Shown: positions 4,889 through 63,652, counted from the stretch's first letter. The stretch is DNA of 64,000 bases from a virus (IMGVR_UViG_3300025000_000055); one strand, 5' to 3'. Made by a program: numbers and translations. Notes: generated by a model from the letters alone, not told the origin.

Positions 4889-5082
4889 AACAATTAAATA
4901 AATATAAAAGGAAGGTGATACTATTTGTTAATGTTTGGGTTACCAAAGAAGGTTTTTCATTTGGATACTAATATGAATATGGCTATAAAACAAATTCCTT
5001 ATTCAATATTACCATCAGGTATTATTATACCTCAGAAACATAGTAGTGATGGAACACTAGAAACTAATAGTAAACTAACTGG
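4889..5082 (+). repeat. Module-head repeat copy 1 (promoter + RBS + about 53 codons)
   Basis: Matches the reverse complement of 63459-63652 at 188/194 nt (hand count); a 59-nt core is also identical to 61358-61416. Confidence 0.95.
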
Positions 5083-5422
5083 TAGTGATGTTGGTGAAGA
5101 ATTCACATTTCAAGACGCTGTAATCGTCACAGGTGAAGGTGAACACCTGACTCTTTCTGGACAGGATAAAGTAATTGTAAGTATTCCCACTGGAACGTCA
5201 ACAAGTAGAAATATAGTATTTAAAGCTACTTCATTAGGAGTTACTGCTTATATGCTTGGGGCAAAAGTAGAATCCTCAGGAAGTATCACGCTTGCCGTTA
5301 GCACTACCAATCAAAATGAAGTTTGGGAAGTTACTGGATTATCCGGTTACGATGACTTTTTCTGTGAAGTAACCGCAGTAGCTGGTGGTAATGTCACCGT
5401 TAAAGGAAGGTTGGTGGCGTAA
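4925..5422 (+). CDS. Constant-N/variable-C module protein A1
   Basis: N-terminus MLMFGLPKKVF...DGTLETNSKLTG shared with 61084..61515 and 63095..63616; C-terminus unrelated. Confidence 0.85.
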   Translation: MLMFGLPKKVFHLDTNMNMAIKQIPYSILPSGIIIPQKHSSDGTLETNSKLTGSDVGEEFTFQDAVIVTGEGEHLTLSGQDKVIVSIPTGTSTSRNIVFKATSLGVTAYMLGAKVESSGSITLAVSTTNQNEVWEVTGLSGYDDFFCEVTAVAGGNVTVKGRLVA

Positions 5423-6646
5423 ATGGATAAAAAATTATTAGCACTTGCACAGAAAAATTCTTTTGACATATTAAATAAAACTAATAAATCTGATGTTTTT
5501 GAATATGTAACATCTATTTCCAATAAATCATCTACCAGTAGTTTAGATGTTAACTACAGATTTACATTTGACGGTAATGGTTTGGGATTATCTGGAATTG
5601 ACCAGATGAGGCCTGTTTTTGAATTGTTAACTATCGACCCAAATGCGGTAAGTTATAAGATATTAATGTATCTTTCGAATAGTCCCACAGCAATAACAGG
5701 TGGTGTAAATTATTCTATATCAAATATCAATATGCGATATGGTATTTGGCAGAAATATGATGATTTGCGAGATTATTATGTTTCCACTTATCGTTATATA
5801 CATCTGCTCGTAAGAGTTAATACCACTGTATCACAATTAACAAAATATTTTTTGAAAAATATAAAGTTTTATATAGGTTCTTCGAAAGCACCTCTTGTTT
5901 CTCAATCTCTTTATAACCAATACATATCATCTACAGAGAGTACGAATTATCAAGTATTTGAATCGTTAAGGAATAGCCCGTGGATAGGTAAAAAAATTGT
6001 GACTTTCGGAGATTCAATAACTTGGTATGATGGGAACCTTTTTGGTGCTGGACACATTGAAGCAGGTCAGACAGCGGTTGGGTATCAGAGTTATATGAGG
6101 GAAGAATTGAAATGTACTGTGATAAACGAAGGTATGAGTGCAAGAAATATCACCGAGATGTGGGACGAAAAGATTAATGCTTATGATTTTACAAATATTG
6201 ATGCTGTTACAATTACAAGTGGTGCTAATGATCATAGGGAAAATATCTCTGTAGGGGCAATAGATGTAATGGGAGCGACATTTAATACAACAACTTTTTA
6301 CGGTGCTTTGCAAGCGACTATAGAGAGAATTATATCACAAAGTCCCTTAACAAAAATTTACCTTATTACACCAATTCGTGGATATTTTAATGAAGAAGGA
6401 ACCGGCAATGTCCCTAATCCAAATGCAATGCCTGAAATTAGTAGAGATTTTCCAGATGCAATTAAGGCTGTTGGGAAATTATATGGCATACCAGTATGTG
6501 ACTGGTATGATAGTTGTGGAGTTAATGACTTAAATATTCTAAATTATTTGGGTGATACTTCTACCCCTCCGTATTATTTACATCCTAAAAATGTTCTATA
6601 TAAACGTATGGCTAATATTCTTGTTCCGTTTTTAAAAAATAATTAG
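5423..6646 (+). CDS. SGNH/GDSL hydrolase (esterase/deacetylase) module protein B1
   Basis: FGDSIT, GANDH and YYLHP blocks. The start directly follows the A1 stop (TAAATG). Confidence 0.85.
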   Translation: MDKKLLALAQKNSFDILNKTNKSDVFEYVTSISNKSSTSSLDVNYRFTFDGNGLGLSGIDQMRPVFELLTIDPNAVSYKILMYLSNSPTAITGGVNYSISNINMRYGIWQKYDDLRDYYVSTYRYIHLLVRVNTTVSQLTKYFLKNIKFYIGSSKAPLVSQSLYNQYISSTESTNYQVFESLRNSPWIGKKIVTFGDSITWYDGNLFGAGHIEAGQTAVGYQSYMREELKCTVINEGMSARNITEMWDEKINAYDFTNIDAVTITSGANDHRENISVGAIDVMGATFNTTTFYGALQATIERIISQSPLTKIYLITPIRGYFNEEGTGNVPNPNAMPEISRDFPDAIKAVGKLYGIPVCDWYDSCGVNDLNILNYLGDTSTPPYYLHPKNVLYKRMANILVPFLKNN

Positions 6647-6740
6647 AGATTATCTAACTAACGAAGGTGCAACAATATATATTCGTGGTGGGTGGTATAA
6701 TGGTGAAGAAACATTTGAAGGTACGGGACAGAAATTATCA

Positions 6741-6762
6741 TACTAACGAAAATGCGTTAGTT
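6741..6762. other. Candidate tyrosine-recombinase site ACTAACG-aaaatg-CGTTAGT
   Basis: 7-bp inverted arms with a 6-bp spacer, 80 nt upstream of the recombinase. A related half-site lies at 6656-6670 (AACTAACGAAGGTGC), and the arm TGCGTTAGTT recurs at 59821-59830 (- strand). Confidence 0.5.
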
Positions 6763-6795
6763 GATTAAAAAATATATAAAATCAACATTTTCCTA

Positions 6796-61515: not shown

Positions 61516-61626
61516 ATATATCTCCTTTCTTCTTTCATATTTATTTATATGTTTTAATTGGATATTAGCTACAAAGAATGTAAATAAAGATGAATAAAAA
61601 ATAAAGATGGTGGCCCCTAATTAATT

Positions 61627-63057
61627 TTATAATAACAGATTACCCACAATTTTCCCCCTATGCTTAATTCTAGTCAATGCTATTTCTGGCATTTCCCATA
61701 CACTATCAAAATCCCAATTTTCATAAGTTGATTGAGAATACATCTCTAATGTAGTTTTAGGAATACCTTTCATTGTATCATCTTGATAAGAGGTCTCCAT
61801 ATTATAATAACAGTTTGTTACAATCCCTGTACCTACCCATGCTAAATATTGCCAACCAATAAGACCACCAACATTAATTCCAGAACCATTAACTTTACCT
61901 ATTGAATAGCAATTTTTTAATGCACAATCACCCATACCCATAAATCCGCCAACACTTTCATTAGTTTCACTTGTCACACTACCTAGAGCATAACAATCTT
62001 CTATAGGTGCTTCCCAACCAGTACCAGTAAAACCACCAACATATCTTTTTCCTGTAACATTACCAGTAGAAAAACATTGTTTTATATTAGAAGTATAATC
62101 AGTAAAAGCTATAAATCCTCCAGCATGTTCTGCATTTCCAGTTATATTCCCTCTTGCAAAAGACCTTAAAATAGGGCATTGTAAATAACAAACTAAACCA
62201 GCCGCATACCTACCATTGGACATTACAGCTCCAGTTGCATAGCAATCTTCAATACTTCCTTCAGTTCCAGTATGAACTATAAAACCACCAGCGGAAGCAT
62301 TATCTACAGTAGTACCAGTAGAAGTTACGTTACCTGTTGCATAACAATTTTTAATTGGTATAGATGAATAAGAGTTAGCTATAAAACCGCCAGCTTTATA
62401 TTTAGCAGTAACATCACAATTAGAAAAACAATTATGAATATTACTATAGTTACCAACAACTAAACCACCAGCATCACCATTAGTTATATTTATACTTCCA
62501 ATAGAATTACAATATTTAATTTCAGCATAATTGTCTGTACAAATACCACCAGAGTTATATTCTGAAACTATATTCACATCCACAGTACAATAACATATCT
62601 CCCCATTTTCCCAGTTTCCTGGGGATATACAAGAATTACCACTTACATAGCAATTTATTATTTTACCTTCATGATATTGTTTAATAATAGCACCATTACC
62701 ACCAGTATCAGCATTTACTACTCTTAAATTTTTTATTATTCCAGTAGAATGAGTACCAGTAAATATTCCTTCACCAGTTAGACCAATAATTGCATAACCA
62801 TTACCATCATAAGTATTATCAATTAAACCATTTGGTGGTCCTACTAAAGCTGTCCATTCACCACTGTTGGTTAAATCTAAATCATTCATTTGAATATAGT
62901 TTCCAGCCATATTATTAGCTACTGCAAGTAAATCATCTAGATTATAAATTCCTATATACCCTTCAGGAACCTCTGTCAATAATATAACTTCTTTATAACC
63001 AATAAGAGAATTATCTATATTAAATAATTTTCTCCATTTTAAAAATGGGTATTTCAT
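61627..63057 (-). CDS. GLUG-repeat beta-helical protein, module protein B2
   Basis: Repeated AGG(L/F)(V/I)...I.NCY(A/S).G.V units. Confidence 0.75.
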   Translation of the reverse strand: MKYPFLKWRKLFNIDNSLIGYKEVILLTEVPEGYIGIYNLDDLLAVANNMAGNYIQMNDLDLTNSGEWTALVGPPNGLIDNTYDGNGYAIIGLTGEGIFTGTHSTGIIKNLRVVNADTGGNGAIIKQYHEGKIINCYVSGNSCISPGNWENGEICYCTVDVNIVSEYNSGGICTDNYAEIKYCNSIGSINITNGDAGGLVVGNYSNIHNCFSNCDVTAKYKAGGFIANSYSSIPIKNCYATGNVTSTGTTVDNASAGGFIVHTGTEGSIEDCYATGAVMSNGRYAAGLVCYLQCPILRSFARGNITGNAEHAGGFIAFTDYTSNIKQCFSTGNVTGKRYVGGFTGTGWEAPIEDCYALGSVTSETNESVGGFMGMGDCALKNCYSIGKVNGSGINVGGLIGWQYLAWVGTGIVTNCYYNMETSYQDDTMKGIPKTTLEMYSQSTYENWDFDSVWEMPEIALTRIKHRGKIVGNLLL

Positions 63058-63094
63058 ATTTAAGTAGCTATTAATATTAACACCCTCTTCCTCT

Positions 63095-63616
63095 TTATAA
63101 ACTATACCCCCAAATATTTAATTCAGTAATTGTGTTAGAACCACCGGCAGATACAACAAGACTAATAGAAGTACTTATTGTTCCTTTTAAAATAGGAACA
63201 GAAGATAAAAGACCAACTCTTTCTCCCGATAATGAATCTTTTCCAATAATATCATAAAATTTTTCAATTATTCCATCTTTCAATTTAATAAATATGTCAT
63301 TGACAGCTGTAGCATTACGTAAACACACAAGATAACCTAAAACATAATGAACTTTTTCTTCAATTGCGTCTATAATAGAAATTTGTTCTGAATCAATAGA
63401 GCTTGTTGTATGAGAAATGAAAGGAATTGCATTCAATGGTAATGGTATACTATTAGTTCCAGTTAGTTTACTATTAGTTTCTAGTGTTCCATCACTACTA
63501 TGTTTCTGAGGTATAATAATACCTGATGGTAATATAACATGTGGTATTTGTTTTATAGCCATATTCATATTAGTATCCAAATGAAAAACCTTCTTTGGTA
63601 ACCCAAACATTAACAA
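63095..63616 (-). CDS. Constant-N/variable-C module protein A2
   Basis: N-terminal 53 aa nearly identical to A1. Confidence 0.85.
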   Translation of the reverse strand: MLMFGLPKKVFHLDTNMNMAIKQIPHVILPSGIIIPQKHSSDGTLETNSKLTGTNSIPLPLNAIPFISHTTSSIDSEQISIIDAIEEKVHYVLGYLVCLRNATAVNDIFIKLKDGIIEKFYDIIGKDSLSGERVGLLSSVPILKGTISTSISLVVSAGGSNTITELNIWGYSL

Positions 63617-63652
63617 ATAGTATCACCTTCCTTTTATATTTATTTAATTGTT
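63459..63652 (-). repeat. Module-head repeat copy 2 (inverted relative to copy 1)
   Basis: 188/194 nt identical to 4889-5082. Confidence 0.95.

Follow-up and report, generated by a model that had tools for sequence, protein, structure and literature searches.

In the phage sequence IMGVR_UViG_3300025000_000055, of which a stretch of 64,000 nucleotides (nt) was analyzed (hereafter the window, meaning always the whole stretch), three small genes named A1, A2 and A3 begin with the same promoter and the same N-terminal region of about 53 codons, designated here as the constant head, and become unrelated to one another in the region that follows, the tail. Each of them is followed by a larger partner gene (B1, B2 and B3, respectively). 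Comparison with two further phages that carry the head shows that the sets of payloads, i.e., tails and partners, have turned over completely between close relatives at one site, and the recombination account of the A heads is well supported. We lean toward the view that these gene pairs are late-expressed host-recognition modules of an AR9/PBS1-like jumbo phage, in which the head would dock A, the tail would hold B and a constant unit of DNA has been copied from site to site.

A constant head with divergent tails and partners

An earlier note on this DNA had described the shared promoter and N-terminus of the three genes and the abrupt divergence that ensues. DNA alignment and a scan for the promoter motif bear out this description, and the gene positions are confirmed (Table 1; A1 as a whole spans 4925-5422 on the plus strand). 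The promoter, the 5' untranslated region (5'UTR) with its ribosome site and about 53 codons are common to A1, A2 and A3, and the similarity ends abruptly past ...CTAACTGG in the DNA alignment, the break between head and tail being also given as after ...AAACTAACTGG, with no similarity beyond. The final 59 nt before the break are identical across all copies, and an exact core of 53 nt occurs three times in the window (5030-5082, 61358-61410 and 63459-63511) versus never in 100 shuffles. Between A2 and A3, 26 of the first 93 coding nt differ (28%) and none of the last 59, a distribution with P ~4e-9 under uniform divergence. A1 and A2 form an inverted repeat of 201 nt at 96% identity (4889-5089 and 63452-63652), while A1 and A3 form a repeat of 224 nt at 78%. 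An RNA element in the core was considered and rejected, no unusual fold being predicted (folding z -0.68).

The motif AACA-N6-TA sits 38-42 nt 5' of each A start codon and also 5' of several other late-type genes, and AACA-N6-TA/G is the published late-promoter consensus of AR9 (PMC5312081). The same motif was looked for before the B genes and none was found there. Since a late promoter precedes A and none precedes B, each A gene and its B partner are most likely carried by one late transcript.

Searching with tblastn gave no match to the head among 50,697 phage records, and the exact core sequence has no match in IMG/VR. A hidden Markov model (HMM) of the head run against 1.84 billion representative proteins retrieved this small clade only, plus two junk repeat proteins, and the same model found nothing in AR9. 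As judged from these searches, the head represents a new family of sequences, found in three related phages only.

The site at which the payloads differ lies behind a gene of 384 amino acids (aa) at the right edge of the window, which is the orthologue of AR9 g052 (40% identity, neighbours conserved). This gene is 93-95% identical among the three phages that carry the head, and other core proteins are 84-91% identical to those of G001, a relative of 250 kb. The possibility, raised in the earlier note, that the partners are invariant across relatives does not hold, as phages with such similar flanks carry different head-plus-payload sets. Indeed, the 384-aa gene is followed in the window by the A2 tail with its GLUG partner (B2) and then by the A3 tail with its SGNH partner (B3), in G001 by a single head protein of 299 aa without a B gene, and in L018/L026 by a head protein of 98 aa with a small Mtd_N-like end, abutting a collagen-like tail fibre of 590 or 500 aa. 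Furthermore, the A1-B1 block is absent from G001, a 563-aa fibre being found in its place, and further fibre and beta-helix genes are present nearby. In relatives at 67-71% identity, the 384-aa gene is not followed by a head gene. In AR9, three tandem paralogues of ~230 aa, g054-g056 (L023:8599-10713), follow g052-g053 in the place of the A2-B3 block; they start with MGLPS, are helical in the middle and end in a beta-rich domain, and the profile comparison between the head and these proteins was not significant (7 columns, E 0.37).

The tails are mutually unrelated in sequence, all pairwise z scores being below 2.5. Residues 58-164 of A1 match residues 16-117 of YomS (PDB 6i5o, E 3.9e-6) and 162-278 of XepA (6i56, E 1.2e-3), and its tail matches phrog_27434 and phrog_16458 (E about 5e-8); with this jelly-roll match of ~105 aa, and with PF27453 precomputed on the A1 allele P0005, the A1 tail can be assigned to the YomS/XepA C-terminal domain family. 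No match to Pfam or PHROG was obtained for the tails of A2, A3 and A4 (a fourth copy described below), which are not assigned to PF27453. The ESM Atlas model of the A2 tail resembles small viral beta-sandwich proteins (TM 0.77-0.83), and that of the A3 tail has a small cupin-like/beta-sandwich fold. Because the head and the XepA linker end together in the alignment, the break, at the border between the XepA linker and C-terminal domain, is a genuine domain border. As a side observation, Logan contigs of X1/X3 hold a match to the start of the A1 tail (window 5073-5125) with 5 differences and with unrelated sequence 5' of it; this piece may come from another strain or phage of these samples that has a YomS-like gene without the head.

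The partners named in the earlier note, SGNH, GLUG and SGNH, were all recovered, as was the TAAATG stop-start adjacency in two modules (A1/B1 and A3/B3); A2 and B2 are separated by 37 nt. For the window phage, what is said of partners covers the three modules read, namely A1, A2 and A3. B1 scores 62.5 bits against PF13472 (E 9.5e-17, cut-off 32.9) and belongs to the SGNH/GDSL family, with the catalytic blocks FGDSIT and SGANDH visible and the Asp of block V off its canonical place by eye. B2 scores 66.7 bits against PF07581 (E 1.1e-18, cut-off 20.5) and is a GLUG protein. B3 is a paralogue of B1 split by a frameshift, one extra G in the G5 run at 60254-60258 inside SGNH block III; its second half scores 29.8 bits, below the PF13472 cut-off, so that it does not count as an SGNH gene with an intact frame. 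Read-through would need a +1 shift, and the frameshift is fixed across all assemblies and the Logan contigs of two runs. B3 is either a pseudogene or dependent on such a shift. The G+C content at third codon positions (GC3) of cassettes 1 and 3 is 0.22-0.30 versus 0.10-0.13 for most genes; since the major head gene is equally high (0.25), this is no proof of a foreign origin. As their matches indicate, including those to tail-fibre PHROG families, the payloads (SGNH, GLUG beta-helix and collagen-like fibre) are of the receptor-binding type, either tail-fibre or depolymerase.

Traces of copying, conversion and a chimeric joint

Upstream of the A1 and A3 promoters lie the decayed last ~35 nt of the 384-aa gene (z 5.7-8.1 overall, and likewise for A3); the A1 relic was assessed by aligning it locally with the genuine gene end at the A2 position and in G001. 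No such relic was found upstream of A4. Because A1 and A3 keep this gene end, the constant unit must have spread as DNA from the site at the A2 position. The A3 relic is nearer to the gene end of G001 than to that of the window itself, which suggests that the A3 unit was imported from a relative.

A patch within A1 (4996-5005) that resembles A3, in an otherwise A2-like head, had been taken in the earlier note as a sign of mosaic exchange, and this finding holds. Over 15,422 nt, contig L001 (177 kb, from another sample) and the window differ at six bases only, all of them in the patch, which is of the A2 type in L001 and of the A3/A4 type in the window. Both alleles were assembled independently, and both seem to be present within one sample. 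That two otherwise identical genomes differ only in these 10 nt indicates short-patch gene conversion between paralogues. In genomes of the L001 type, A1 and A2 are perfect inverted repeats of ~190 nt.

Since A1 and A2 are inverted repeats, homologous recombination between them should invert the 58-kb segment that they enclose. Contig L002 (2,087 nt, from a third sample) joins the 384-aa gene and the head to the A1 tail and B1, exactly the joint predicted for this inversion, and carries its own haplotype of the 384-aa gene. L002 is either an inversion product or a misassembly. The 384-aa gene, otherwise 95% conserved, contains a hypervariable patch (63746-63983). Two haplotypes of this patch, which differ at 18 of 238 nt, reach similar depths in one run, and a third one is found in L002.

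The earlier note had counted three modules, which is correct for the window, while four head copies are present in the genome. Searching proteins with A2 brought up P0006, which is 133 aa long and has an A3-type head and a new tail, and contigs of three samples end in an inverted A3-type head ~7.7 kb past the window end (A4). The A3 and A4 heads are near-identical. Logan unitig depths correspond, per genome, to ~4 copies of the 59-nt core, ~2 A3/A4-type heads and ~1.5 A2-type heads (counted on the A2-type patch allele). The A4 contigs all break at the head, the exact look-up of P0006 gave no match, and the contig on the gyrA side stops 22 nt past gyrA. In G001, the A4 position is taken by a second head gene, likewise without a B gene. 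The interval between A2 and A4 (L003:97-2457, about 5.6-8 kb past the window end) encodes three proteins of 109-113 aa, two of which are paralogous and beta-rich, as well as a protein of 422 aa that starts with an Mtd_N-like region and contains a Pel9A-like beta-helix; it appears to be a further receptor-binding cluster.

Source phage and neighbouring features

The window is AT-rich (26% G+C), its source phage is uncultured, and the metagenome runs that hold its sequence are from groundwater. Its major head protein (885-2612) shares 25-27% identity with those of the Bacillus phages AR9 and PBS1, Staphylococcus phage S6 and relatives, and the window also encodes RNA polymerase beta fragments, a UvsX-like gene and many group I introns. 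The major head protein, g052 with its neighbours, the fragments of a multisubunit RNA polymerase and the late promoters identify the source, at the level of sequence, as an AR9/PBS1-like jumbo phage, and a distant one since identities to AR9/PBS1-type proteins are low (25-40%). At least 10 related group I introns lie within 8430-58420 (e.g., 16793-17153, 51524-51841 and 51894-52206) and interrupt the genes of the terminase, RNA polymerase, recombinase and others; three of them reach the Rfam threshold, and the others are marked by the repeat families D1-D9.

Some features next to the modules are listed in Table 1. The tip of the short fibre adjoining A1 is that of the collagen-like B fibre in L018/L026. 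Its Mtd_N-type N-terminus also begins three large G001 fibre genes of 573-634 aa (G001:C1:37759, 118041 and 120403; L013-L015) and forms a second, independent family of constant N-termini in these phages. No significant relative was found for the orphan frame after B1, and all catalytic motifs of the XerD-like gene are readable despite its frameshift.

Table 1. Features of the window related to the A and B genes, in order of position
Feature	Position	Strand	Remarks
Short fibre gene adjoining A1, Mtd_N-type N-terminus and tip domain	4005..4517	+	
Relic of the 3' end of the 384-aa (AR9 g052-like) gene, 5' of the A1 promoter	4855..4888	+	z 6.2-6.6; 0/300 shuffles as good
A1 late promoter (AACA 4889-4892, TA 4899-4900) and 5'UTR with ribosome site	4889..4924	+	identical to the A2 copy
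A1 constant head, ~53 codons	4925..5085	+	59-nt core 5024-5082; polymorphic patch 4996-5005
A1 variable tail, YomS/XepA C-terminal jelly-roll domain	5086..5422	+	PDB 6i5o, 6i56, PHROG, PF27453
B1, N-terminal domain (170 aa) and SGNH/GDSL esterase; start abuts the A1 stop	5423..6646	+	PF13472, phrog_11541, phrog_5240 tail fibre
Start-less 30-codon frame from CTAACT (hexamer and frame of the head/tail junction), then hairpin ACTAACG-N6-CGTTAGT	6654..6761	+	
XerD-like tyrosine recombinase, 2-nt frameshift near 7215	6842..7695	+	same break in L001; absent in G001
Terminator-like long hairpin closing the A2-B2-A3-B3 block	59770..59813	-	
B3, SGNH-like B1 paralogue (34% identity), frame-split	59844..61083	-	two frames, 60247-61083 and 59844-60260
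A3, head (61355-61515) and 90-aa cupin/jelly-roll-like tail	61084..61515	-	
A3 promoter (AACA 61550-61553), 5'UTR and 384-aa gene-end relic reading ..FTFFVANIQ	61516..61600	-	
B2, GLUG-repeat beta-helix-like protein	61627..63057	-	PF07581
A2, head (63456-63616) and 118-aa beta-sandwich tail	63095..63616	-	
A2 late promoter (overlapping the final codons of the 384-aa gene) and 5'UTR	63617..63652	-	
3' part of the 384-aa gene (AR9 g052 orthologue), mark of the ancestral head locus	63644..64000	-	

Proposed function, rival readings and known systems

In the scheme that we favour, each A protein would combine a lineage-specific constant head of ~53 aa with a variable beta-sandwich tail of ~90-120 aa, and the B gene, probably co-transcribed with A in the three modules read and translationally coupled to it in two, would encode the distal working part, namely an SGNH esterase or a GLUG beta-helix in the window phage and a collagen-like tail fibre in close relatives. 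The head would dock every A protein to one common place on the virion, the tail would hold its own B protein, and the particle would display several different surface-binding or surface-degrading tips; we infer these anchor and receptor-binding roles of A and B from the genes. At the DNA level, the constant unit runs from the final ~35 nt of the g052-like gene through the late promoter and the ribosome site to the head. This unit was copied from an ancestral site behind the g052-like gene to new sites, where it would now act as a portable arm of homology. The copies, whether in one genome or in co-infecting relatives, would be subject to general homologous recombination and short-patch gene conversion with one another, with the outcome that the heads stay alike up to the domain border while everything downstream is exchanged. 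The cassette reading of the earlier note stands as regards architecture and mosaic exchange, and is limited by the fact that swapping requires no dedicated mechanism beyond homologous recombination.

Several points weigh against this scheme. The placement of A and B on the virion is deduced from the genes, and AR9 g054-g056, in the syntenic place, are annotated as hypothetical and not as virion proteins. Both G001 head genes lack a B gene, so that A can work alone, and a strict matching of tail to B is weakened because the paralogues B1 and B3 go with A tails that have no sequence relationship to each other. The predicted complex of A1 with B1(1-190) scored 0.00 with a partner pLDDT of 45, which speaks neither for nor against binding, and single-sequence AF2 models, with pLDDT values of 35 (P0007) and 31 (A3), are too low to use. 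As for exchange, L002 is a 2-kb scaffold across a repeat of ~190 nt and could be a misassembly; the reciprocal joint, that of the fibre gene to the A2 tail, was looked for in contigs and not found. Logan contigs (k=31) are unable to span this repeat. Moreover, the 59-nt identity may stem from a single conversion event rather than from a hot spot.

It is in our opinion unlikely that the A genes are simply old duplicates. In that case a few recent duplications would account for the likeness of the heads, the break would be nothing more than the boundary of an N-terminal arm with a jelly-roll domain, exchange would not be going on, and the shared DNA would play no particular part. One conversion and one duplication could yield the 59-nt identity, the A3 and A4 heads hardly differ, and the chimeric contig L002 might be an assembly error; against this reading stand two co-occurring genomes that differ solely in the patch, a site wholly different in phages with 93-95% identical flanks, and an A3 relic that points to import from a relative. 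The coincidence of the break with the XepA linker/C-domain border fits such duplicates too. An old domain boundary was also the objection which the earlier note had foreseen, and it is justified in part: the break is indeed an ordinary domain border as well, yet the partners vary and a chimeric contig exists. A location on the capsid rather than on the tail is somewhat less probable still. The A proteins would then be pentameric jelly-roll discs on the capsid or at a fivefold site, holding trimeric fibres in the manner of PRD1 or adenovirus, or the head would serve as a leader for assembly or targeting. As pentameric jelly-roll proteins that have been proposed to reside at capsid vertices, XepA and YomS make such a location possible, while in prophages their genes adjoin tail-fibre genes (PMC6834076). 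The A1-B1 pair directly follows the major head gene, whereas the B payloads match tail-fibre families and no protease-type cleavage motif is conserved in the G001 heads. Weak ESM feature matches to a cluster with PRD1_P5_spike_N (0.79-0.90) are at or below the stated noise level of the tool.

Two further readings appear very improbable. In one of them, A would be an assembly chaperone for B and the shared head would bind a common assembly factor. The tight stop-start coupling of A and B and the frequency of dedicated small partners of fibre genes agree with this idea; fibre chaperones, however, are normally encoded downstream of the fibre, where L018 has such small genes after B, head genes exist without B in G001, and the tail of A1 is a member of a jelly-roll family that forms stable oligomers. 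The other, to which we give the least credence, is site-specific capture, in which an integron- or shufflon-like system would once have acted at the junction hexamer CTAACT, with the neighbouring XerD-like recombinase inserting tail-plus-B cassettes behind the head. The A1 tail-B1 cassette is in fact flanked by in-frame CTAACT repeats: the hexamer recurs 10 nt past the B1 stop and is followed by the start-less frame of 30 codons, which would be the displaced end of a former gene, then by a hairpin with the same core and by the tyrosine recombinase gene; in addition, a CGTTAGTT motif follows B3. This recombinase is nevertheless frameshifted in every assembly and absent from relatives that have other cassettes, and the short site, far from standing at both ends of every cassette, flanks A1 tail-B1 only, no motif of the CTAACT type being found after B2 and the junction of the relatives lacking CTAACT. 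The motif AACTAACK is not clearly enriched (11 observed versus 4.6 +/- 2.4 expected, 3 of the 11 being head copies), and repeats of 160-200 nt that include promoter and gene relics fit homologous recombination.

If our preferred reading of two-gene host-recognition modules is correct, the copies of the constant head look like a means to shuffle host-recognition parts. Receptor-binding parts decide the host range of phages, and little is known of their diversification in giant phages of the AR9/PBS1 type. The present case provides an unusually clean natural record, with an ancestral site, DNA relics, three payload sets at one site and a conversion patch of 10 nt. Should the head be a universal virion adaptor, it would offer a simple handle to attach new enzymes or fibres to such phages, as well as a function for the so far unexplained YomS/XepA jelly-roll family.

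Among the closest known systems are tail spikes and fibres with a conserved anchor and exchangeable enzymes, as in K1-5/SP6, CBA120 (TSP1-4), G7C (gp66 with the SGNH esterase gp63.1) and multi-depolymerase Klebsiella phages. They likewise have a constant N-terminus, variable enzymatic or fibrous distal parts, several receptor-binding proteins per genome, SGNH esterase and beta-helix payloads, and horizontal swapping at the border between anchor and payload. Here, in contrast, the constant part belongs to a small protein of its own, whose gene precedes a second one, its attachment is putative, and the setting is an AR9-like jumbo phage. In the hyperplastic regions of T4-type phages, genes of internal proteins share a promoter and a capsid-targeting leader, and PeSL promoter cassettes mediate modular shuffling. 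The conserved promoter and short N-terminal leader in DNA, the abrupt divergence thereafter and the role of short repeats as portable homology are alike, whereas the payloads here are of external fibre or enzyme types rather than small internal proteins and the leader is 53 aa long. A motif of the prohead-protease type (..GTLE..) at the leader end occurs in the window and L018 heads and is absent from both G001 heads, so that the head does not qualify as a T4-type leader.

The invertible segments of Mu (G) and P1 (C) and the R64 shufflon also combine a constant N-terminus with alternative C-termini and a co-switched downstream gene. Each alternative tail has its own downstream gene there as here, and inverted copies lead to inversion upon recombination. 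However, every copy here has its own promoter and a complete head, so that all can be expressed at once, the repeats measure 160-200 nt instead of sites of 26-34 bp, and the sole nearby recombinase is frameshifted. With XepA (PBSX) and YomS (SPbeta), the A1 tail shares a homologous C-terminal jelly-roll and the head ends where the XepA linker ends, although A1 has the 53-aa head instead of the XepA N-terminal domain and the tails of A2-A4 have no sequence match. AR9 g054-g056 occupy the genomic place of A2-B2-A3-B3 and are likewise tandem paralogues, starting with MGLPS.. versus MFGLPKK.. here. The principle of a conserved anchor with swappable tips is thus already known from smaller phages; what is new here is the head family, the split of the module into A and B, the jumbo-phage setting and the population-level trace of exchange.

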